Below, piece by piece: positions 7,310 through 46,773 of a DNA stretch of 64,000 bases. Position numbers and translations under genes: made by a program. Source of the DNA: an uncultured Nitrososphaeria archaeon (GTDB lineage: Archaea > Thermoproteota > Nitrososphaeria_A > Caldarchaeales > JAVZCJ01); NCBI GenBank assembly GCA_964532175.1, contig CAZHGP010000001.1, forward strand, positions 21,046-85,045, written 5' to 3'. The number at the start of each line of letters is the position of its first letter. Position 1 is the stretch's first letter. The notes under the pieces were generated by a model. That model was not told the DNA's origin. It searched no databases and saw nothing but the letters and a program-made list of their open reading frames with translations.

Positions 7310-7672
7310 ATGAATATGTCTCACCCGATTATTAAAATGTTAAGTTGGAAAACAAGACTTTTAAGTGAAGAAGAAATAATTCAAGTACTTGCAGCAATAG
7401 CAAATATTAATTTAAATGAATTTATGCTTAAAGATATTATCAATTTTCTTCCTGAAAAAATTTCAAATGATAAAAGAAAAAGGAGAAGTATTTCTTCATT
7501 CTTAGAAACTTTAGTAGAAATTGGTTATTTAAAAAAGCCATCAGAAAGAAAATGGTCAAAAGTAACATCTTCTTTAAGTCATTTTTTAAGTCCATTATTA
7601 TTAGAATTAAGTGAATTGGAAAGAAAACCAATTAAAAAAGAAGAAGAAAAGAGAGTAATCAAGTTTTCTTAA
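7310..7672 (+). CDS. Hypothetical protein
   Basis: ORF only. Its 3' end overlaps the convergent hjc gene by 14 nt. Confidence 0.3.
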   Translation: MNMSHPIIKMLSWKTRLLSEEEIIQVLAAIANINLNEFMLKDIINFLPEKISNDKRKRRSISSFLETLVEIGYLKKPSERKWSKVTSSLSHFLSPLLLELSELERKPIKKEEEKRVIKFS

Positions 7673-8090
7673 TTTTTTTATCAGTTTTAATTATTAATGA
7701 ATTTTCTATTTCTACTGGAATTTCTAAAAATTTCCATTCTCTATTAAGAAATCTTACAGCTAAAACAGGTTTTGGAGAAAATTCTTTTCCACAATGAGGG
7801 CATTTTACAATGAATTTTTCACAAAATTCTTTTATACGTTTAATTTGTTCTTTATTTAGCATAATATAATCTTTACGAGTTGATTTTACTTCTATAGCAA
7901 GTAGATTTCCATTATCTACTGCTATTAAATCTGGTTTAGCCATTTTACCTGATCCGCTTCCAGGAGTTCTAATAGCATAAAATCCAGCTTTTCCTATATC
8001 CAAGAATTTTTTTAATAAATAATATTCTCCTTCATATCCTATTCGTGCTTTATATTTAGGAGAACTAATTTCCTTAGGCTTTCTAGGCAA
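7659..8090 (-). CDS. hjc: Holliday junction resolvase Hjc-family, with an inserted zinc ribbon
   Basis: GYEGEYYLLKKFLDIGKAGFYAIRTPGSGSG … PDLIAVDNGNLLAIEVKST reproduces the Hjc pattern (G-x-x-E … D … E-V-K). CPHCGKEF is a Cys pair. Confidence 0.7.
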   Translation of the reverse strand: MPRKPKEISSPKYKARIGYEGEYYLLKKFLDIGKAGFYAIRTPGSGSGKMAKPDLIAVDNGNLLAIEVKSTRKDYIMLNKEQIKRIKEFCEKFIVKCPHCGKEFSPKPVLAVRFLNREWKFLEIPVEIENSLIIKTDKKIKKT

Positions 8091-9828: not shown

Positions 9829-10470
9829 TTATTTCATTTTACTTATTTTTTCTTCAAATTTTTCTAGGCTTTTCTCTATTTCCATTCTTCTTGCTTCAAA
9901 TAATATATCGCTTTTTGTTTTTTCTATTAATGAGCGAGCAACATCACATTTTCTTCTTAATCCATATATATTTGAAACTAAAAGTGTACTCATAAGTTCA
10001 TAATAAATATTTTCCATTAATTCAAGAATTTCTAAAGCATATTCTAAATTTTGTTTTCTTAAACTTTCTATTGCTAATCTTCTTAATTCTCCTATAAAAT
10101 CTGCTAAACTAGTTACATATGTTTCAGCTAATACTGGAGCTTCTTTATAATTAAGCAAGCGTCTTTCTTCAATAAATGTTTTAAATAACATTGCTTCACA
10201 AAATTCTTGGAAAGCTATCAATACTTCTCCAGAATACATGAATTCTTCATTTTTTAATAGCATTTCTTTAAGAATTTCTAAATATTTTTTTGCTTCCAAA
10301 AAATGTTTTTCAGCTATGTCTTTCTCTCCTTTATGAAGTGAAATTATAGATAAACCACTTTCTTGAACAATTTTTCTAGTTATTTTAATTATTTCTTCTT
10401 TTATTTCACTTTTAATCGCAAGTTTTTCACGTAATGCTTCCATTTCTTTACGGAATTCTGTTAAATCCAT
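9829..10470 (-). CDS. Translin-family protein (tentative)
   Basis: 213 aa, all-helical pattern of translin-like length and character. No diagnostic motif was confirmed. Confidence 0.35.
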   Translation of the reverse strand: MDLTEFRKEMEALREKLAIKSEIKEEIIKITRKIVQESGLSIISLHKGEKDIAEKHFLEAKKYLEILKEMLLKNEEFMYSGEVLIAFQEFCEAMLFKTFIEERRLLNYKEAPVLAETYVTSLADFIGELRRLAIESLRKQNLEYALEILELMENIYYELMSTLLVSNIYGLRRKCDVARSLIEKTKSDILFEARRMEIEKSLEKFEEKISKMK

Positions 10471-23669: not shown

Positions 23670-24383
23670 TTAAATTGCTTTTATTTTATTTATATCTATT
23701 TTTGAATTTAGAAATATTGTAATATAAGGTAAATTATAAAATTCTACATTAATTTTTTCAAGAAAATCTTTCAATGCTCTTACATAAAGTATTGTACAAT
23801 ATTCATTTGAATGAATTTTTGTTTCATATAAAGATAATATTATTGGTAAAATAATTATTTTTATAGAACCTTTATTATAAATTTTTTCTAATAATTTTTC
23901 TAAAATTTTTGCTCTAAAATATTGTTTTTTACTTGCAATTTCTAAATTTTTTCCTATTAAAGGTTTACTCCATCTTTTACAATCAAATAATAATATTAAA
24001 TTTTCTTTTATTGCTAAAATATCTATTTCTGTTCTTTTCTTATTTTCTTTAATTCTAAAATTTTTAATAACATCATATCCATAAATATTTAATATTTTTG
24101 AAGAAAATTTTTCAAAATCTTTCCAATTTAAGAATTTTACTAATTCTTCTATATTTACTCCAGAAGCTAATGCTTCAAAAGCAATTGATAATTTTTCAAT
24201 TTCATTTATTGAAATCTCTTGATTTATTTTTAAATTAATATTTTTCAAAACTTCTTCTAAAACATTCTTCGAAACATTTGAATATTCCATTAATTCTTTA
24301 AAAGAAAACTTTTCCTTATTCTTAGTAAATCTTATTATATTTAATAATATTCTTTGCTTAACTTCAGTTTTTATACTAGACAA
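23670..24383 (-). CDS. wHTH plus Mrr-cat-like (PD-(D/E)xK restriction-endonuclease fold) protein
   Basis: WKDFEKFSSKILNIYGYDV … EIDILAIKENLILLFDCKRW follows the Mrr_cat pattern (W-x-x-FE … GY … D-I-D/E … Q/D-C-K-R). The N-terminus is helical and wHTH-like. Confidence 0.45.
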   Translation of the reverse strand: MSSIKTEVKQRILLNIIRFTKNKEKFSFKELMEYSNVSKNVLEEVLKNINLKINQEISINEIEKLSIAFEALASGVNIEELVKFLNWKDFEKFSSKILNIYGYDVIKNFRIKENKKRTEIDILAIKENLILLFDCKRWSKPLIGKNLEIASKKQYFRAKILEKLLEKIYNKGSIKIIILPIILSLYETKIHSNEYCTILYVRALKDFLEKINVEFYNLPYITIFLNSKIDINKIKAI

Positions 24384-31089: not shown

Positions 31090-32733
31090 ATGTTCAATGA
31101 TAAATTTAAAGATTTAATCGATATAGCTCTTAAAGCATCTGAAAAAATTATTGATAAAAATCTTATAGTAGCATTATGTCTTTATGGCTCACATGTAAGT
31201 GGATATGCTTCTCCTGAAAGTGATTTGGATGTTATTTTAATTGCTAAAAATTTTAATCAAAAAATAAAGTATTTTTACATAAGAGATTTTACTCCAATTG
31301 TTTCAATTTTAGTTATTGATGAAAAATTATTTGAACAAGATGTTGAACAAGCATATCTTGGAGAATTTGTTGCTGGCAGATTATTCACTCCATATTATAT
31401 TATTTATGGAAAAGAATATATAAATGAAATGGATTTAAGATTAAAAAGAAGAACAATCCTTGAACTTACAGAAAACTTAATTTTAGAAAGAAAGCTTTTA
31501 TCAACAGAATTATTAATAAAACCAGAATATTTCCTTTTTGAAAAACTTAGACGTAGAGCAGCTGCATACCCTCCAGCAAAATATAGTTATTTAAAAATTC
31601 TTTATGGAATAAATGGTGAAAAAAATTTAGAATTTATGTTAAATGGATTTAGAATAGCTTTAGATAAATTAGTTTCAGAAAAATTATTTGAAAAAATAAA
31701 TAATTTTTATTCTCCTAAAAAAGAATTAGTTTTAAAAATGCTAAAAGATTTAAAAACTCCAGTAAAAGTTATGGAAGAAGGTGAAAGAATAATTAAAATG
31801 TATTTAACACATGGTTTTGCAGGTAGATTAAATCCAAAGCTTATAATTGAAGAAGCATATTCTAAAATTAAAAGAAGTATTAAAATTGGATTTGAGAAAG
31901 ACTTGCCTGATCCAGAAAATTATTTATTCATTAATACTAGTTTAGGCTTTCAACCAGCTGGAATAGAATGGTCTATAACAGAATTTGTTAATAAATTTTA
32001 TGGAATAAGTAAAAAAGATTTTAAAATAGAAAAAATTGGTTCTTTATTCAATTCAACTTATTTATTGAATATTCCAATTAAGAATAAAAAAATATTTATT
32101 AAAAAATATTTGAATTGGACAGATTTTAAATGGATTGTAGCATGGATGTGGACAATAGGTGTTAGAAATTTTGATATTCTTGCTAGTGATAGAATGTCTA
32201 ATGAGATTCATTTTATTAATACTCTTAAAAAAGAAAGGTTTAATGTTCCAAATATACTTCATATTAATTGGAAAAGAAAGCTTTTATTTGAAGAATATAT
32301 TCCAGGTATAGATTTATTATCTTTATGGAAAAATTATGAAAAAAATTCAAAAGAATGTGAAGAAGCAGCATTTAAAACTGGTATAAATATTGCTAAAGTA
32401 CACAAATTAAATATTGCTATTGGAGATTGTAAAGCTGAAAATTTCTTATTAAGTAATAATGAAATATATTTAACAGATTTAGAACAAGCAAAATTTAATG
32501 GTGATAAAGCATGGGATTTAGCTGAAATGCTTTTTTATCCAGGGCATTATTTAGGAATTAAAAAAAGCATAATTTTTGCTTCAAGCTTAATAGATGGATA
32601 TTTAAAAGAAGGGGATAAAGAAATATTAGCTTCATCAATGAAATTAAGTTATAGTAGATTATTAGTTCCTTGGACTCCTCCTTGGATTATAAAAGAAGTA
32701 CAAAAAATTGTTTATGAAAAAATTAAAAAATAG
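31090..32733 (+). CDS. Two-domain protein: N-terminal Pol-beta-type minimal nucleotidyltransferase plus C-terminal APH/RIO/Kdo-like kinase fold
   Basis: The nucleotidyltransferase motif is LYGSHVSGYASPESDLDV (GS…D-x-D). The C-terminus has IGDCKAENFLL (catalytic-loop-like D…N), LTDLEQA (DFG-like) and WDLAEML. The gene starts 3 nt after the cysS stop. Confidence 0.4.
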   Translation: MFNDKFKDLIDIALKASEKIIDKNLIVALCLYGSHVSGYASPESDLDVILIAKNFNQKIKYFYIRDFTPIVSILVIDEKLFEQDVEQAYLGEFVAGRLFTPYYIIYGKEYINEMDLRLKRRTILELTENLILERKLLSTELLIKPEYFLFEKLRRRAAAYPPAKYSYLKILYGINGEKNLEFMLNGFRIALDKLVSEKLFEKINNFYSPKKELVLKMLKDLKTPVKVMEEGERIIKMYLTHGFAGRLNPKLIIEEAYSKIKRSIKIGFEKDLPDPENYLFINTSLGFQPAGIEWSITEFVNKFYGISKKDFKIEKIGSLFNSTYLLNIPIKNKKIFIKKYLNWTDFKWIVAWMWTIGVRNFDILASDRMSNEIHFINTLKKERFNVPNILHINWKRKLLFEEYIPGIDLLSLWKNYEKNSKECEEAAFKTGINIAKVHKLNIAIGDCKAENFLLSNNEIYLTDLEQAKFNGDKAWDLAEMLFYPGHYLGIKKSIIFASSLIDGYLKEGDKEILASSMKLSYSRLLVPWTPPWIIKEVQKIVYEKIKK

Positions 32734-39775: not shown

Positions 39776-40174
39776 ATGTCGCACTCAATATATCTTATTA
39801 AGGCGAAAAAAGGAGATATGGAAATAGAAGCTCAAGCTCCAACATCTTCTGAAGCTTTAGAATTATTAAATAAAGCTATAGAATTACTTGAAAAATTACC
39901 TATTGAAAAGCATGAATTAATAACTAGTAAAATGGAAGAAAAACCATCTATTGATGCATTTGAAAAAACTTCTACTGGAAGAATAAAATATTTAATTGCA
40001 ACTGGTTTCTTTAATACTGAACGTTCTCTCTCAGATACTTATGAAGAACTTTCTAGATTAGGATATCCTTATGATGTAAAATCTATTGATAAATCTCTTA
40101 GACAATTAACACGTAAAGGTTTACTTAGAAGGCTTGGAACTAGAAGAAACTATAGATATATTGCAGTAAAATAA
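39776..40174 (+). CDS. Small wHTH protein, paralog A (C-terminal …RGYPYDVKSIDKSLRQLTRKGLLRRLGTRRNYRYIAVK)
   Basis: The C-terminal wHTH is clearly paralogous to the 43669-44151 product (ERSLS…RGY.Y…G(L/I)L.R.G..RNYRYI). Confidence 0.45.
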   Translation: MSHSIYLIKAKKGDMEIEAQAPTSSEALELLNKAIELLEKLPIEKHELITSKMEEKPSIDAFEKTSTGRIKYLIATGFFNTERSLSDTYEELSRLGYPYDVKSIDKSLRQLTRKGLLRRLGTRRNYRYIAVK

Positions 40175-40184
40175 AGGTGAAAAA

Positions 40185-40658
40185 ATGGAAAAAGAAAAAA
40201 TTGAATTAAAAGCAATAATTGAATATAATAATACACGTATAGAATTTAAAGGAAATTTTTATGATGTATGGAATAGTATTAATAAATATTTTTCAACAAT
40301 TTTTCCATCATTTGAAGCGATTAAAAAAATTGTTGGAAAAATAGATATAAATGCATTATCTGAAATGATATCGGATGAAGTTAAAATAATAGATAGTAAA
40401 ATAATAGTTCATGGAGAAAATGATGCAAAGAGAAAAATAGTATTAGCTTTAGCAGGTGCTTATATTGGAGCAGCAATGGGTTTAATTCAAAATGATTTCC
40501 TTACTCCTCAACAAATTTCTGAAGCTACTGGAATAGATAGCAAAATTGTAAGAGCTAGATTAAGTGAAATGGTTAAATCTAATCTTGTATTTAAAATTGA
40601 TGAAGGAAAATATAAATATTCTCCAATTGGAGAAAAATTAATTAAAATGAAAAAATAA
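40185..40658 (+). CDS. Small wHTH protein, paralog B
   Basis: The N-terminus ELKAIIEYNNTRIEFKGN and C-terminal wHTH TPQQISEATGIDSKIVRARLSEMVKSNLV are related to those of the next gene. Confidence 0.4.
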   Translation: MEKEKIELKAIIEYNNTRIEFKGNFYDVWNSINKYFSTIFPSFEAIKKIVGKIDINALSEMISDEVKIIDSKIIVHGENDAKRKIVLALAGAYIGAAMGLIQNDFLTPQQISEATGIDSKIVRARLSEMVKSNLVFKIDEGKYKYSPIGEKLIKMKK

Positions 40659-40679
40659 AAGGAGTTGTAAAAGAATAGA

Positions 40680-41177
40680 ATGTCTGAAAAAAATGAAAAC
40701 CTTAAAATTAATATTTCTTATAAAGATTTATCTGCTACATTTGAAGGTAATCCGGAACAAGTTTATAGATCAGTTATAGCATTTTTAGAAAAAGTTATTC
40801 CAGCATATTCTTTAGCATCAAAAATAAGTTATTCAATTAATATTCAAGATATACTTGAAAAAGCAAGTAAAATTTTAGCTTATAATCAAAATGAAGGAAT
40901 TTTCTTTCTAAATCCAATTAATAATTATTCCTTAATTGATGGAATAATGTTATTTTTATTAAAATTATACATAGAACATTCCATTGGTTTAAGAGATTCT
41001 CCTGAAGCATCCTTATTAGAAATAAGCAATTTTCTTAATAAATCTCAAAAATCTATTTCTGGAAAAATTAGTAATCTTATTAAAAATGGTTATATTAGAA
41101 GATTATCAAGAGGTAGTTATGTTTTAACAATAACTGGTTTAAAGCATTTAATAGAAAATATTATCCCAAAAATTTAA
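40680..41177 (+). CDS. Small wHTH protein, paralog C
   Basis: N-terminus NLKINISYKDLSATFEGN. C-terminal wHTH SLLEISNFLNKSQKSISGKISNLIKNGYIRRLSRGSYVLT. Confidence 0.4.
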   Translation: MSEKNENLKINISYKDLSATFEGNPEQVYRSVIAFLEKVIPAYSLASKISYSINIQDILEKASKILAYNQNEGIFFLNPINNYSLIDGIMLFLLKLYIEHSIGLRDSPEASLLEISNFLNKSQKSISGKISNLIKNGYIRRLSRGSYVLTITGLKHLIENIIPKI

Positions 41178-41232: not shown

Positions 41233-41769
41233 ATGACTCAAATATGGATTGCAAGAGATTATTCTAAATGTAGTGGATGTAGAAGATGTGAAATTGCTTG
41301 TTCTCTTAAACATGAAGGAGAAATATGGCCTGAAGCATCTAGAATAAGAGTTTTTATGCTTATTCCAGGTATTGAAGTGCCACACCTTTGTGTTCAATGT
41401 CCAGATTATCCTTGTGTAGAAGCATGTCCTACAAATGCTTTATCGATAAATAAAGAAACAAGTGCTGTAAAAGTTGATAAAGAGAAATGTATTGCATGTG
41501 GAAAATGTATAGATGCATGTCCAGGTAAAATTCCACATATGCATCCAACAAAGAAACATATAATCATATGCGATTTATGTAATGGAGATCCAGAATGTGT
41601 AAAAGTTTGTCAAGAAGGTAAATGGAATGCTTTATGGGTAGCCCCAAGACCTAGTAGTCCAGTGTCTAATCCACTTTCTATAAAACTTTATGCAAGAACA
41701 CCTCAAGAAATAACTAAAGATCTTGCTAGAAATATTTATGGAGAAGAATTTGATAAAGAGGTGGTATAA
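41233..41769 (+). CDS. 4Fe-4S dicluster/polyferredoxin-like electron-transfer subunit (AorA-like) of the AOR
   Basis: Multiple Cys clusters: CSGCRRCEIAC, CVQCPDYPCVEACP, CIACGKCIDACP, CDLCNGDPECVKVC. Confidence 0.7.
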   Translation: MTQIWIARDYSKCSGCRRCEIACSLKHEGEIWPEASRIRVFMLIPGIEVPHLCVQCPDYPCVEACPTNALSINKETSAVKVDKEKCIACGKCIDACPGKIPHMHPTKKHIIICDLCNGDPECVKVCQEGKWNALWVAPRPSSPVSNPLSIKLYARTPQEITKDLARNIYGEEFDKEVV

Positions 41770-41770
41770 A

Positions 41771-43660
41771 ATGTTATATGGATATAATGGAAAATTTATT
41801 GAAGTAGATTTATCTAATGAAAAAATAAATGTAGAGAAAATCGATGAACAAATTTTAAGAGAATATATAGGTGGGAGAGCTTTAGCATCAAAAATTTTAT
41901 GGGATAGACTTGGAAATAAATGGGAAGAGGTAGATCCTTTAGGTCCTGAAAATCTTTTATTATTTTTAACTGGACCATTAACAGGATATTTTCCAGGAGC
42001 AAGAATATGCGTTTCTGGAAAATCCCCTCAAAGTAATGGAATAGTCGGCTCAACTGTTGCTGGGAATTTTGCAATAGAACTTAAATGTGCTGGATATGAT
42101 GGAATAATTGTAAGTGGAGAAGCAAAAAAACCAGTTTATTTATTCATAAAAGATGATTTTATAGAAATAAAAGATGCAGCTCATATTTGGGGTAAAAAAG
42201 GGAAAGAAACAACGGAAATATTAATTAAAGAAACATTTAAAGAATTATCAAATAAATGGCCTTGGAAAGGATTATGGAAAGACCCTGGAATACTCTATAT
42301 TGGTCCAGCTGGAGAAAATAAATCTAGAATAGCTGCTGTAATGTCAAAATGGTCTCATGCAGCAGGATATGGTGGATATGGAGGAGTAATGGGTTCAAAG
42401 AAACTTAAAGCAATTGTTGTTAAAGGTTCAAATCCTCTTCCACCTGTAGCAAATAAAGAGAAAGTTTTAAGCTTAATAGCAGAAGTTTGCAAAGTTTCTA
42501 TTCAAGAAAAAGATGATTGGAGAAGATGGGGTACTGGTTTTGGAGGATATGGATTTGGTGCAGATACTAGTTCTGAACCTATTAGAAATTGGCAAGAAGA
42601 ATGGCATGATAATAAAAGTTTTGGAGTTGATAAATTTGAAGAAAGAGTATGGATAAAAAGATATTGGGGAGATGATGGATGTCCAACAACATGTCTTAAA
42701 CTTGCAGTAATAAAAGATGGAGAATTTAAAGGAGCTATAACAGATAATCCAGATTATGAATTGCAAGCATACCTTGGTACAAATTTAGGAATATTTACTC
42801 CTGAAGGAAATGTCTATATGTCTTCTGTAATAGATGATTTGGGTTTATGTGGCATACAAGGAGGAAATGTTCTTGGTTTTACAGCTGAATTATATCAAAG
42901 AGGGATTTTAACAAAGAAAGATTTAGGTATTGAACTTGAATGGGGCAATCCAAAAGCATTTGCAAGATTAGCTGAAAAAATAGCATATAGAAAAGGTATA
43001 GGAAATATTTTAGCTGAAGGAACTTATAGAGCTGCTTTAAGATTATCTAAAAGAAAGAAAATTGATTTAATGAAATATGCTATTCAAAGCAAAGGAATAG
43101 CAATTGGAGCGCATGGAATAAGAAGTGGATTAGATTATCCACCAATAATTGCTTATGCATGTTCTGTACAAGGAGGAGACCATACTTCAGTAGCTGGATT
43201 AATACGTGAAGAATTATGGAAATGTGAAATGTCAATGCTATTTGCAGATAGTGGCGTAGTGTGTGCATTTAATGTTTTCAAATTAGATTGGTTATGGGAT
43301 TTCTTACAAGCTATTACTGGATGGAATATAACTAAAGAAGAATGGTATGAAAAAATTGCTGCTAGAGTATTAGCTATTCAACGCACATTTTTATTACTTG
43401 GCGGACCTGATATTTATTGGGATCCTAGAATTCATGATGAAAATCCTGAAAGATTTTATGAACCTCTTCCTTCTGGTCCGAAAAAAGGAAGTGCTACAAA
43501 TAAAGAAGATTTTCTTAAAACAAAAAGCGAATATTATAAAACTTTAGGATGGGATGAATATGGTATTCCTACTTCAGAAACATTAGATAAACTTGGTTTA
43601 AAAGATGTAGATAATATTCTTCAAAAAGTAAGAAATAAGATATATTCAAGTAAGCCATAG
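41771..43660 (+). CDS. Tungsten-containing aldehyde:ferredoxin oxidoreductase (AOR family)
   Basis: MLYGYNGKFIEVDLSNEKINVEKIDE is an AOR-type N-terminus. About 629 aa. A strong SD (gaggtgg) sits immediately before the ATG at 41771, so the longer 41723 ORF start is rejected. Confidence 0.75.
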   Translation: MLYGYNGKFIEVDLSNEKINVEKIDEQILREYIGGRALASKILWDRLGNKWEEVDPLGPENLLLFLTGPLTGYFPGARICVSGKSPQSNGIVGSTVAGNFAIELKCAGYDGIIVSGEAKKPVYLFIKDDFIEIKDAAHIWGKKGKETTEILIKETFKELSNKWPWKGLWKDPGILYIGPAGENKSRIAAVMSKWSHAAGYGGYGGVMGSKKLKAIVVKGSNPLPPVANKEKVLSLIAEVCKVSIQEKDDWRRWGTGFGGYGFGADTSSEPIRNWQEEWHDNKSFGVDKFEERVWIKRYWGDDGCPTTCLKLAVIKDGEFKGAITDNPDYELQAYLGTNLGIFTPEGNVYMSSVIDDLGLCGIQGGNVLGFTAELYQRGILTKKDLGIELEWGNPKAFARLAEKIAYRKGIGNILAEGTYRAALRLSKRKKIDLMKYAIQSKGIAIGAHGIRSGLDYPPIIAYACSVQGGDHTSVAGLIREELWKCEMSMLFADSGVVCAFNVFKLDWLWDFLQAITGWNITKEEWYEKIAARVLAIQRTFLLLGGPDIYWDPRIHDENPERFYEPLPSGPKKGSATNKEDFLKTKSEYYKTLGWDEYGIPTSETLDKLGLKDVDNILQKVRNKIYSSKP

Positions 43661-43668
43661 AAAAATCT

Positions 43669-44151
43669 TTAATTTATATTATTTACTTTAACTTCCTCTA
43701 TTTTTTTAGAATCAAGAGTAATACTTTCTTCTTTTTTAAATTTAGAAATATATCTATAATTTCTAGGCTTTCCTCTTCTTTCTAATATTCCTTGTCTTAC
43801 TAAATCAAGTAATACATGGGATACTGCTGTTGAATTATAATTATATCCTCTTCTAGCTATTTCTTCAACTACATTTGATAAACTTCTTTCTTCAGAAAAC
43901 CATCCTTCTTTATAAATTGCTTCTATTAAATCTCTACAAGTTAAATTATCAGATGGTTTTCTTTTTTGAATTATTTCACTTTTTATTTCAGGCTCTTTTT
44001 CTATTATAGCTTTTTCTTCTAAATTGCTTTTAAAAGCTGAAATAACATTTTTAATAGTTTTTTCAAGATCTTTTTGAGGACATTCAAGCTCTACTTCTAT
44101 AGAACCTATTTTTAACCTTACTTTTATGGGAATTTCATTGCTCATTTCCAT
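43669..44151 (-). CDS. Small wHTH protein, paralog D, divergent from the nurA-like gene
   Basis: C-terminus …SEERSLSNVVEEIARRGYNYNSTAVSHVLLDLVRQGILERRGKPRNYRYISKFK is paralogous to paralog A. Confidence 0.45.
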   Translation of the reverse strand: MEMSNEIPIKVRLKIGSIEVELECPQKDLEKTIKNVISAFKSNLEEKAIIEKEPEIKSEIIQKRKPSDNLTCRDLIEAIYKEGWFSEERSLSNVVEEIARRGYNYNSTAVSHVLLDLVRQGILERRGKPRNYRYISKFKKEESITLDSKKIEEVKVNNIN

Positions 44152-44219
44152 TCACTAATTGATCAAATTGAGCAACATTTATAAGCACGGAAATATTATT
44201 ATTTAATGGTTGAAAAGCG

Positions 44220-45284
44220 GTGCAAAATATACAACAAAATTCAATACCTTTAAACAAACCCTCTTTACACCTAGATATAGCTAGCAGTACTTATTTAAAA
44301 GCTTTTTCTAATTTAGGATTAATATCTTTAAATAAAATAAATAATGATGAATATTTCTTTCCTGTGCTAGATAAAAATATTGATGATGATGATCATAATG
44401 AAGATATCTTGATAATAGATTTTAAGCAAGGAGAACCTATTTCTTTTTCAATAAAGCCTATTGAAATTAAAAAACCTATAATTGCTATAGATACTTCTTC
44501 TATTAAAATAGCAGAGAATAGTGAAGGTTTTATAATTGCTATAAGAGGTGCAATAATACATCGTTTTTTAAATAAAGCATCAGCTTATTTAATAGGACCT
44601 TTTCCATTTTATATTTGTGAAGAAAATTCTTATTTAATTTATAATAGGCTTAGAAATATATTTTTTGGATTAAAAGAAAATGTTAATCCACCATTACTTG
44701 AACATATTCCTAAAAGAATAGGGAATTTATTCGATCGTTGGCTTCAAATTTATGTTGCTGAAAAATTCTCAGATTCTATTCTTCTTTTTGATGGTTCTCT
44801 TACAGCTGGAACAATAGATAGTCCAATTTCTATTATGAAAAAAATAATTGAAACTTCTCAAAAAAATAATAATATAATCATGGCTTTTTCAAAAATGACT
44901 AGATTGAGAATTCATGGTGTAAGAATAACAGAAATTCAAAGTAAAGAATCATATCCATATGTAATTAATATTGACAATTGTTTAAAACAAATGAAGTATA
45001 AATGCTTTGGAAATATTTATGTTGCACGCTTATCTCCTTTTCCTTATTCTTATAGATTAGATATTGCACCTTTTTCAAAAGATAAACATATTGAAGCATT
45101 AGGTATATTATTGAATAATGATGCTATAATTTATGGATATCCTGAAACTTTATTATTAGCTCATGTATTATCAACTTTTAATAAAATCGATGTTATTGGT
45201 TTTCAAAGATTACTTGCAAGTGAATTTAATTTTCCAATATATGAAAATGAAGATATTAGGGAAACTTTATTTCAACCATTTTAG
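44220..45284 (+). CDS. nurA: NurA-like 5'-3' nuclease (RNase H-like fold)
   Basis: IAIDTSS and LLFDGSL (NurA motif-I-like DGS), plus a C-terminal GYPETLLLAHVLS resembling the conserved NurA YP-x-x-L-x-x-AH motif. Confidence 0.5.
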   Translation: MQNIQQNSIPLNKPSLHLDIASSTYLKAFSNLGLISLNKINNDEYFFPVLDKNIDDDDHNEDILIIDFKQGEPISFSIKPIEIKKPIIAIDTSSIKIAENSEGFIIAIRGAIIHRFLNKASAYLIGPFPFYICEENSYLIYNRLRNIFFGLKENVNPPLLEHIPKRIGNLFDRWLQIYVAEKFSDSILLFDGSLTAGTIDSPISIMKKIIETSQKNNNIIMAFSKMTRLRIHGVRITEIQSKESYPYVINIDNCLKQMKYKCFGNIYVARLSPFPYSYRLDIAPFSKDKHIEALGILLNNDAIIYGYPETLLLAHVLSTFNKIDVIGFQRLLASEFNFPIYENEDIRETLFQPF

Positions 45285-45297
45285 AAAGTGATTTAAA

Positions 45298-46773
45298 ATG
45301 AAAATATTAAAAAAGGAGAAAAATTCAATACAAATAATATGCTTTCCAGAAGATGTTGAAATACAAAAAGGAGATTATTTAATTGCTGAAGAAGGGAATG
45401 GAAAATATGCTTTATTGCAAGTAATAGATGTAAATTATGTTCAAACACCTGGAATACTTGAAGATTTACTTAGAACGATGTCTCTTGAAAAAATAGATAC
45501 AAATTTGATAGATCCTTTTGATACGAATTCTTTTATGCTTTTAATAAAAGATGCTAGAATTGTCTCAACAAAAATACGTGCAATTGCTGAAGGAGATAAT
45601 CTTATTTTTGGAAGTTCTTGGTTACCATCTAGATTCAAATCCTTCATAAGAAAAGCAGATATCGATACTCTTTATAGATTAATTAAAGTAGATGGATTTA
45701 GAAAAATAAATATTGGGAAAGTTTCCGGACAAGATTTTTATATAAATGCTGAAGCATTTGATGGAAGATTAACAATTATAACTGGAAAAAAAGAAACTGG
45801 AAAATCGCATATAGCAAAAATAATAGTTTCTTCACTTGTTGAATATGGAGCTAAATGTATAGTATTTGATATTAATGGAGAATATGTAAATTTAAATAAG
45901 AATAAGCTAGGAGAACCAAATAAATTAGCTAATAAAATTAAAATCTTAATTCCTGGAGAGAATTTTAAAGTAACGATAAAAGATGCTGGATTGAAAGTAT
46001 TACTTGATGTACTTGAATATGTATATAATACTCCTGGAACAAGTTGTAGAGAATTTGCAAGAATTTGGCATACAATTGAACATAAAAGGATGTCTTTAAC
46101 AATTGATGATTTGATAGAATTTATACAGAGAGCATCTATTCATGAATCTGTTAGGGATGCATTAATTTCTAGAATGCTTGCATTAAAAGCTTCTCGCTTC
46201 TTTACAAATAATGAAAATGAAGCTACATCTTTAATGGATGAAATAAATTCTATTGATGATGGAACATTGATTATAATAGATATGAAAAGTCTTATTCCTA
46301 TAACTAGAAAAATAGTTGTTGAATATATATTAAGCAAACTTGGTACTCTTCTTAAAGATGATAAGATTCCACCAATTTTCTTATTGGCAGAAGAAGCACA
46401 TTTGTATATTAGAAATACTTATTGGGATGATCTAGTAACTAGAATGAGACATTTTGGTTTATTTCCTATTTTCGTTACAAATCAACCAGATTCTATACCA
46501 GAAACAATTTATAGGCAAGCAGATAATATATTCTTATTTAATTTTACGAATGAAAATGATTTAGATTTCATTTCTAAAGCTTCTAGGATAGATTCTGAAA
46601 GTATAAAATCTATTGTAAGCCAGTTACCTCCAAAACATTGCTTTATACTTGGCTATGTTGTAGGAGATTTACCCATAGTAGTTAAAGTTAGGGATATGGA
46701 TATTCAAACCATGGGTATGACTAAAAAATTCTTTAAGGAAAGAAAATCGATTTTAATTCAAAAAATGCTTTAA
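45298..46773 (+). CDS. herA: HerA-like (DUF87/FtsK-HerA superfamily) ATPase
   Basis: N-terminal HAS-barrel-like region (DYLIAEEGNGKYALLQVIDV). Walker A TIITGKKETGKSHIAK. Walker B/DEAH-like FLLAEEAHLYI. Confidence 0.55.
   Translation: MKILKKEKNSIQIICFPEDVEIQKGDYLIAEEGNGKYALLQVIDVNYVQTPGILEDLLRTMSLEKIDTNLIDPFDTNSFMLLIKDARIVSTKIRAIAEGDNLIFGSSWLPSRFKSFIRKADIDTLYRLIKVDGFRKINIGKVSGQDFYINAEAFDGRLTIITGKKETGKSHIAKIIVSSLVEYGAKCIVFDINGEYVNLNKNKLGEPNKLANKIKILIPGENFKVTIKDAGLKVLLDVLEYVYNTPGTSCREFARIWHTIEHKRMSLTIDDLIEFIQRASIHESVRDALISRMLALKASRFFTNNENEATSLMDEINSIDDGTLIIIDMKSLIPITRKIVVEYILSKLGTLLKDDKIPPIFLLAEEAHLYIRNTYWDDLVTRMRHFGLFPIFVTNQPDSIPETIYRQADNIFLFNFTNENDLDFISKASRIDSESIKSIVSQLPPKHCFILGYVVGDLPIVVKVRDMDIQTMGMTKKFFKERKSILIQKML

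Follow-up and report, generated by a model that had tools for sequence, protein, structure and literature searches.

A divergent NurA–HerA pair with a conserved wHTH gene and promoter in an uncultured archaeon

We analysed a 64,000-nucleotide (nt) stretch of contig CAZHGP010000001.1 (assembly GCA_964532175.1; hereafter the window) from an uncultured Nitrososphaeria archaeon, and describe here a gene pair encoding a NurA nuclease and a HerA ATPase, together with the divergently transcribed gene wD in front of it, which encodes a winged helix-turn-helix (wHTH) protein. The locus is a divergent but otherwise ordinary NurA–HerA pair, and the only minor novelty is that its putative regulator gene and the promoter are conserved. 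We consider it probable, at roughly 80%, that the locus is the lineage's own vertically inherited NurA–HerA machine and not a mobile defence module. A first-pass annotation, made from the sequence, had read it as a possible non-canonical, accessory or defence-type module. That reading is not supported: the pair is found throughout the lineage, sits in housekeeping synteny, is conserved to the same degree as GatE and has orthologues linked to mre11–rad50.

The nurA gene (44220–45284, plus strand) has a GTG start and encodes a 354-amino acid (aa) nuclease with a predicted RNase H/PIWI fold. The herA gene (45298–46773, plus strand) encodes a 491-aa ATPase assigned to the FtsK–HerA superfamily of hexameric translocases. 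Only 13 nt separate the nurA stop codon from the herA ATG, with a Shine–Dalgarno (SD)-like AGTGAT inside this gap, and with such a gap the two genes form an operon and are co-transcribed. The wD gene (43669–44151, minus strand; 160 aa according to the list of open reading frames, ORFs) is separated from nurA by a 68-bp putative divergent promoter/operator region (44152–44219). The three ORFs and the motifs quoted for them in the first-pass annotation (DGS and YPETLLLAH in NurA, GKKETGKS and AEEAH in HerA) were found exactly as claimed.

Distribution and inheritance of the nurA–herA pair

We scanned GTDB, where each species is represented by one genome and the best match is 43% identical, and found a relative in at least 465 species genomes. 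The NurA family numbers hundreds of proteins, virtually all of them from Bathyarchaeia, and several already carry the name 'DNA double-strand break repair nuclease NurA'. For statistics on the locus, the best 80 GTDB loci were used, and herA lies directly 3′ of nurA in every one of them. In distant relatives, gatD–gatE is repeatedly followed by two or three small genes of the wHTH type, an insert that varies, the divergent wHTH gene and then nurA–herA. Synteny with gatD–gatE, hypF and a class I tRNA synthetase gene is retained in relatives whose NurA is 81–93% identical.

The closest relatives are metagenome-assembled genomes (MAGs) from hot springs, such as GCA_038874475.1 (27% GC), in which the gene order agrees with that of the window up to and including hypF and the gene for the M29 peptidase and diverges beyond that point. 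L060 and L008 are more distant relatives. Compared with this genome, NurA is 93%, HerA 96% and GatE 93% identical. Against the distant locus L008, the corresponding values are 55% for HerA and 53% for GatE. As HerA is thus about as well conserved as GatE, the gene behaves like a core gene and not like one subject to defence-island turnover. The NurA proteins of other Bathyarchaeia MAGs belong to the same orthologous family (35–45% identity over 78–95% of the length) and have the same neighbours, whereas the window comes from a low-GC (~26%) sister clade and carries genes for an aldehyde:ferredoxin oxidoreductase and a ferredoxin between the small wHTH genes and wD. In the HerA tree, the window, L005, L060 (Ca. 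Terraquivivens) and L008 make up a clade that is sister to a group containing mre11–rad50-linked loci. From these data, nurA–herA appears to be a vertically inherited, single-copy pair of Bathyarchaeia and allied TACK archaea.

Insertions occur in the interval that separates wD from the small wHTH genes. In the lineage of the window (41233–43660), the insertion consists of the 4Fe-4S ferredoxin and aldehyde:ferredoxin oxidoreductase genes mentioned above; at the same place in L006 (7870–9488) there are genes for an SMC_N/AAA_15 ATPase and a DUF4276 protein. On the contig of GCA_038874475.1 (L089), the syntenic block is adjoined by a gene that codes for over 1000 aa (1–2409; 1069 aa called) that has no counterpart at this place in the window and, as judged by tblastn, is not Rad50. 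Two loci filed under acidobacterial MAGs, L042 (DATGZD010000034.1; Ca. Sulfotelmatobacter) and L075 (DASPTR010000079.1; Ca. Acidoferrum), contain a bathyarchaeal wD–nurA–herA locus, and their filing is probably due to binning contamination.

Linkage to mre11–rad50

Neither Mre11 nor Rad50 was found in the window, either by tblastn with the bathyarchaeal proteins or in a Pfam survey that covered nearly all ORFs of at least 110 aa. The first-pass annotation was therefore correct on this point, but it had taken the missing genes as the mark that distinguishes this pair from the canonical one, and the relatives do not bear this out. We regarded a locus as informative for linkage if at least 4 kb of downstream sequence was present, which was the case for 57 of the 80. 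In 48 of these 57 the nurA–herA pair stands alone as it does in the window, so that missing mre11–rad50 genes nearby are the usual state of the family and no anomaly.

In the remaining nine informative loci, mre11 starts 2–5.5 kb after nurA, and rad50 is also present in eight of these nine. The layout of the linked loci is nurA–herA, one gene on the opposite strand (a NUDIX gene in L006) and then mre11–rad50. In addition to these nine, the 1.9-Mb metagenome contig L006 is linked, with Mre11 and a zinc-hook Rad50 encoded ~2 kb past the herA gene of the family. A phylogeny had been proposed as a way of separating the window pair from the Mre11-linked ones; in the HerA tree, the linked loci are nested inside the same family. 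Where linkage exists, the orthologous nurA–herA is the Mre11/Rad50-associated pair. The first-pass annotation had itself named a sole HerA/NurA, with mre11–rad50 simply located elsewhere in the genome, as the case that would make this the housekeeping pair; going by the relatives, this case would apply here.

Identity and predicted active site of the nuclease

The identities proposed for both proteins stood up to the profile hidden Markov model check, with scores above the cut-offs in each case. NurA matched PF09376 at 26.3 bits (gathering cut-off 21), with residues 87–315 covering profile positions 3–249 of 254. Its motifs are AIDTSS (aa 89–94), FDGSL (aa 190–194) and YGYPETLLLAH (aa 305–315). 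The AlphaFold2 (AF2) model has a predicted local distance difference test score (pLDDT) of 78; the score exceeds 85 over most of residues 70–340, while residues 1–69 are of low confidence. When this model was searched with Foldseek, the top match was NurA of Saccharolobus solfataricus (2YGK; E-value 9.2e-9), followed by 8WFD_G, the NurA-like chain of TdpAB (E 2.3e-8; TM-score relative to the query, TMq, 0.49). Further down are 9X1M_G of T. kodakarensis (1.7e-6), 7F6D_G of D. radiodurans (4.3e-5) and 3TAL of P. furiosus (9e-4). Argonaute PIWI domains rank below the solved NurA proteins in this list, and the TM-scores of the model to solved structures are modest (0.4–0.5).

All of 30 NurA homologues share D91, D191, K225, Y307 and H315, and the conservation of E134/E135 is 90% or more. 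We predict from the alignment and the model that D91, E135, D191 and H315, together with K225 and Y307, make up the active site. In the model, these residues are placed in beta1 (D91), at the start of alphaA (E135), at the end of beta4 (D191), after beta5 (K225) and in the C-terminal loop and helix (Y307–H315). They occur in the same order as the catalytic sets of S. solfataricus NurA (D58/E116/D133/K202/Y298; PMC3326311) and P. furiosus NurA (D51/E105/D126/K297/Y403/H411; PMC3300031), and the Y-x7-H spacing is identical to that of the latter. Failure of the catalytic residues to align had been named in the first-pass annotation as something that would overturn its reading; by motif order, the D-E-D-H set, the lysine and the tyrosine match the published sets.

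The 354-aa reading of nurA from the GTG start is backed by conservation of the N-terminus in the homologues and by a GTG and an SD-like box that are conserved across Bathyarchaeia. In GCA_038874475.1 (L089, 8862–9782), the deposited NurA call is 306 aa, which is probably an N-terminally truncated annotation.

Identity of the ATPase

HerA matched DUF87, the HerA central domain, at 62.4 bits (cut-off 23.2). Its Walker A motif is GKKETGKS (aa 163–170; nt 45784–45807) and its Walker B motif LLAEEAH (aa 362–368; nt 46381–46401), and it also has R384-H-F-G and T-N-Q-P motifs. The best solved relative is S. solfataricus HerA (4D2I), with residues 92–485 aligned to 79–481 of 500. In this alignment, the counterparts of GKKETGKS, LLAEEAH and RHFG are TGSGKS, VIEEAH and RKFG, respectively. 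The Walker A, Walker B and RHFG motifs are invariant in 31 homologues. A family profile built from 31 sequences gave 56.5 bits for 4D2I, compared to 41.5 for Sir2-HerA, 35.9 for T. kodakarensis HerA and 25.5 for TdpA, the last three being partial alignments. The Pfam HAS-barrel families had no match in HerA at E ≤ 1. Sequence alignments to 4D2I start only at residue 92–111, and the N-terminus of HerA is well conserved within the family. The HAS-barrel-like N-terminus named in the first-pass annotation was thus not confirmed by sequence.

Comparison with known HerA–NurA systems

The system most similar to the window pair is HerA–NurA of S. solfataricus (4D2I and 2YGK), which belongs to the herA–mre11–rad50–nurA repair operon of thermophilic archaea. 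HerA aligns to its counterpart over nearly the full length with the Walker A, Walker B (EE) and R-x-F-G motifs conserved; NurA has its top fold match there, with the D-E-D triad, the lysine and the tyrosine in the same order, and the two genes are adjacent. The differences are that the order in the window is nurA–herA, that mre11–rad50 is not adjacent, and that the window NurA has an extra helix between the glutamate and the second aspartate (56 residues between them, compared to 17 in S. solfataricus NurA). The conserved divergent wHTH gene of the window locus is also unlike the Sulfolobales, for which, to our knowledge, no such gene has been reported beside nurA–herA.

The NurA–HerA pair of Deinococcus radiodurans (7F6D) is likewise a stand-alone nurA–herA operon with no adjacent mre11–rad50, and its nuclease is a fold match of the window NurA. 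It is viewed as a minimal machine for end resection (PMC12977600; PMC9960219). The Deinococcus pair is thought to be horizontally acquired, and the genome is said to be without Mre11–Rad50, whereas the window pair appears to be vertical and occurs in an archaeal clade whose members encode Mre11–Rad50, sometimes in an adjoining position. The anti-phage HerA systems (Sir2-HerA, 8J4U; DUF4297-HerA; TdpAB, 8WFD/8WET) also combine a hexameric ATPase of the HerA family with a nuclease or effector, and TdpB is NurA-like in its fold. The window pair differs from them in its partial and weaker HerA similarity, in having NurA as the partner, in its core-gene behaviour and in that no effector or modification partners were found in the window.

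The divergent wHTH gene and the shared promoter region

The small divergent gene had been read as encoding a wHTH protein, and this agrees with our data. The wD protein matched Pfam Penicillinase_R at 25.6 bits (cut-off 22.6). In its AF2 model, a beta-hairpin and helix at the N-terminus (aa 8–45) are joined through a disordered linker to a winged helix at the C-terminus (aa 72–136; pLDDT 83–90). The best Foldseek matches were the winged helices of BlaI, MecI, Fur and PadR, with E-values of 4e-3 and weaker (4e-3 to 2e-2 for the BlaI/MecI DNA-binding domains); the fold search of wD returned generic winged-helix regulators only, with no match for the N-terminal hairpin and helix. In the BlaI, MecI and PadR repressors, the wHTH domain is N-terminal and the dimerisation or sensor domain is C-terminal, whereas this order is reversed in wD. 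A sensor-protease gene of the BlaR/MecR type was not found beside wD in the ORF list of the window. Going by its model, what wD has in common with the BlaI/MecI/PadR families is only the DNA-binding fold.

In 69 of the 80 loci, a wD orthologue is present upstream of nurA in divergent orientation. The other 11 comprise seven loci truncated by a contig end and four from one subclade that are arranged differently.

The intergenic region contains a perfect palindrome, TTGATCAA (44159–44166), a second TTGAGCAA box, a TATA-like TTTATAA (44178–44184) and an SD-like GGTTGA (44208–44213) ahead of the nurA GTG. A 31-nt core, TTGATCAAATTGAGCAACATTTATAAGCACG (44159–44189), which includes the perfect palindrome, the second TTGNNCAA box and the TATA-like element, is shared without a single mismatch by the window, L005 (where NurA is 81% identical) and L089. 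In pairwise comparisons of 69 Bathyarchaeia loci, the mean identity of the wD–nurA intergenic DNA is 72%, compared to 61% for the nurA coding DNA. The blocks that are at least 90% conserved are TATTGT repeats, a TTGTGCA/TGCACAA inverted repeat, TTTAAATA, a GGTGAAT SD-like box and the GTG start. The loci, 1.2 Mb in all, contain 68 copies of a 19-mer spanning the B recognition element (BRE) and the TATA box, CATGCACAACATTTAAATA, every one of them at the wD–nurA site. Judging by how constant its position is and how well the operator-like DNA next to it is conserved, wD is very probably a dedicated local regulator of nurA–herA. The most likely targets of wD would be the TTGNNCAA-type boxes, which are conserved and lie directly beside the BRE/TATA of the 68-bp region, and the bound protein may control nurA–herA as well as its own gene.

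At its very start, the nurA coding sequence repeats, in inverted orientation, a motif similar to the left block. To look for a common regulon with mre11, the DNA upstream of mre11 in the linked loci was compared with the wD–nurA operator; only a TATA box is shared, and we claim no such regulon.

The three tandem small wHTH-type genes (39776–41177, plus strand; 132, 157 and 165 aa) follow right after gatD–gatE. They have weak wHTH matches in Pfam and wHTH-like C-terminal regions, and are covered by no curated family. The first-pass annotation had called the divergent gene a paralogue within this set. This is true with respect to the 132-aa protein (39776–40174; 34% identity, E 1e-19), but there is no detectable similarity between wD and the 165-aa protein (40680–41177). 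The 157- and 165-aa proteins are paralogous to each other (E 8e-8). The trio is syntenic with the nurA–herA block in many Bathyarchaeia, and its tie to the module is uncertain.

Proposed function and alternative explanations

By analogy with the solved complexes (PMC3326311, PMC9960219), the HerA hexamer would be an ATP-driven pump that passes the ends of duplex DNA along its central channel and into a NurA dimer. The two-metal RNase H-type sites of NurA (D91, E135, D191 and H315) would then cut the strands, and this cutting may serve as a DNA-end processing step alongside Mre11–Rad50 in the repair of double-strand breaks in archaea. Formation of the HerA–NurA complex and its substrate are likewise proposed by analogy; the one argument from our own data that the NurA dimer would bind the HerA hexamer is the adjacency of the two genes in 80 of 80 loci.

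Several observations weigh against assigning the locus to a repair machine of this kind. The nuclease is very divergent: by sequence it had no match among solved structures, either as a single sequence or as a 30-sequence profile, which is why the fold search was used instead. Its catalytic residues were mapped from motif order and the secondary structure of the model, and not by three-dimensional superposition. HerA scores far below the cut-offs of the NCBIfam equivalogs (42.6 bits against 800 for HerA_Thermprot, NF040937, and 35.3 against 970 for helicase_HerA, NF040819), which by sequence places it in a divergent subfamily outside these curated models. Mre11 and Rad50 were found neither in the window nor in the six contigs of the closest MAGs (L089–L094); judging from relatives, they would be encoded elsewhere in the genome of this organism and may cooperate with the pair. 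The binding of wD to the boxes described above is only inferred. Finally, the cellular role of even canonical HerA–NurA is debated, an uncertainty that is family-wide and not specific to the window locus: in a 2026 study, T. kodakarensis HerA–NurA degraded both strands and may do no end resection, and an antiviral role was floated (PMC12977600).

The proposal closest to the first-pass annotation is that of an accessory, horizontally mobile HerA–nuclease module, controlled by a local repressor, that restricts viruses or plasmids apart from recombinational repair. The PADLOC HerA and mad8 models do match part of the ATPase (E ~1e-16 to 1e-17), the NCBIfam model 'anti-phage-associated HerA' scores 46.3 bits compared to 42.6 for HerA_Thermprot, the divergent wHTH layout is typical of regulated accessory operons, and mre11–rad50 is not nearby. 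However, the NCBIfam match covers the C-terminal 110 residues only, and defence HerAs in general align over only ~120 C-terminal residues, whereas the repair HerA of S. solfataricus aligns over the full length. The nuclease had no PADLOC match, and the Pfam survey of the window turned up nothing of Sir2, DUF4297, methylase or other defence type, nor any gene of a mobile element. The pair is also near-universal and apparently single-copy in the clade, evolves slowly in a fixed housekeeping synteny, and has orthologues that adjoin mre11–rad50, all of which makes a mobile defence module very unlikely. A more specific version would be a TdpAB-like restriction pair, in which a HerA-like TdpA and a NurA-like TdpB attack DNA that lacks phosphorothioate modification. 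Such systems are described from extremophiles (PMC12914056), and the TdpAB chain 8WFD_G, second in the fold search, matches the window NurA as well as S. solfataricus NurA does. Yet TdpA itself reached less than half the score of S. solfataricus HerA with the family profile and over a partial region, the modification genes (tdpC, dnd and those of the 3′-phosphoadenosine 5′-phosphosulfate reductase type) were not found in the window or the syntenic loci, and the pair is linked to mre11–rad50 in relatives. We regard this version as extremely improbable.

A different possibility accepts the pair as canonical and vertical, but gives it as its main job the wholesale destruction of linear or foreign double-stranded DNA (dsDNA), or another task of the HerA/FtsK type, with the wHTH protein as an off-switch until it is needed. 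The double-strand cutting by the T. kodakarensis enzymes and the antiviral role proposed by the authors (PMC12977600) fit with this, as do the tight control implied by a dedicated wHTH gene with exceptionally conserved operator-like DNA and the unlinked position in 48 of the 57 loci. On the other hand, HerA and NurA are reported to be essential and resection-proficient in Sulfolobus islandicus (PMC4351679), and the pair adjoins mre11–rad50 in a subclade. On balance, we think this account unlikely, and we favour the vertically inherited NurA–HerA machine with a role in end processing.

As a NurA–HerA pair, the locus carries little weight: it helps to complete the set of repair genes of an uncultured archaeon with low GC from hot springs, and unlinked nurA–herA is the norm in Bathyarchaeia. 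What is mildly new is that three parts are conserved as a unit: the wHTH gene, the divergent promoter, which is highly conserved, and nurA–herA. This unit offers a testable handle on the regulation of archaeal end-processing enzymes and bears on the question of repair versus the destruction of foreign DNA. More speculatively, wD and the near-invariant promoter might constitute an ancient, dedicated on/off switch for NurA–HerA across Bathyarchaeia and allied TACK archaea, that is, a DNA-damage- or virus-responsive, lineage-wide regulator of a dsDNA-degrading machine, an idea we put forward only tentatively. We know of no LexA-type SOS system in archaea.

Other features of the window

The window has a GC content of ~26% and, in the Pfam survey, is filled with housekeeping genes, among them those for GatD/GatE, CysRS, a ValRS-type synthetase, Cdc48, HypF, a proteasome subunit, electron transfer flavoprotein and Hjc. 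No tRNA genes and no Rfam matches were found in the window. A scan for sigma-70 promoters and terminators gave 21 sites compared to 23.8 expected; such a scan is uninformative for an archaeon. Genes for an Hjc Holliday-junction resolvase (7659–8090), a translin-family protein (9829–10470) and a NERD-domain protein (23670–24383), all on the minus strand, are present, and none of them adjoins nurA–herA. A 547-aa protein (31090–32733, plus strand) without a Pfam match at E ≤ 1e-5 has an NCBIfam Bud32-like kinase region at aa 364–477 (E 6e-13) and a weak N-terminal match to an MntA-type nucleotidyltransferase, which is an unusual fusion.

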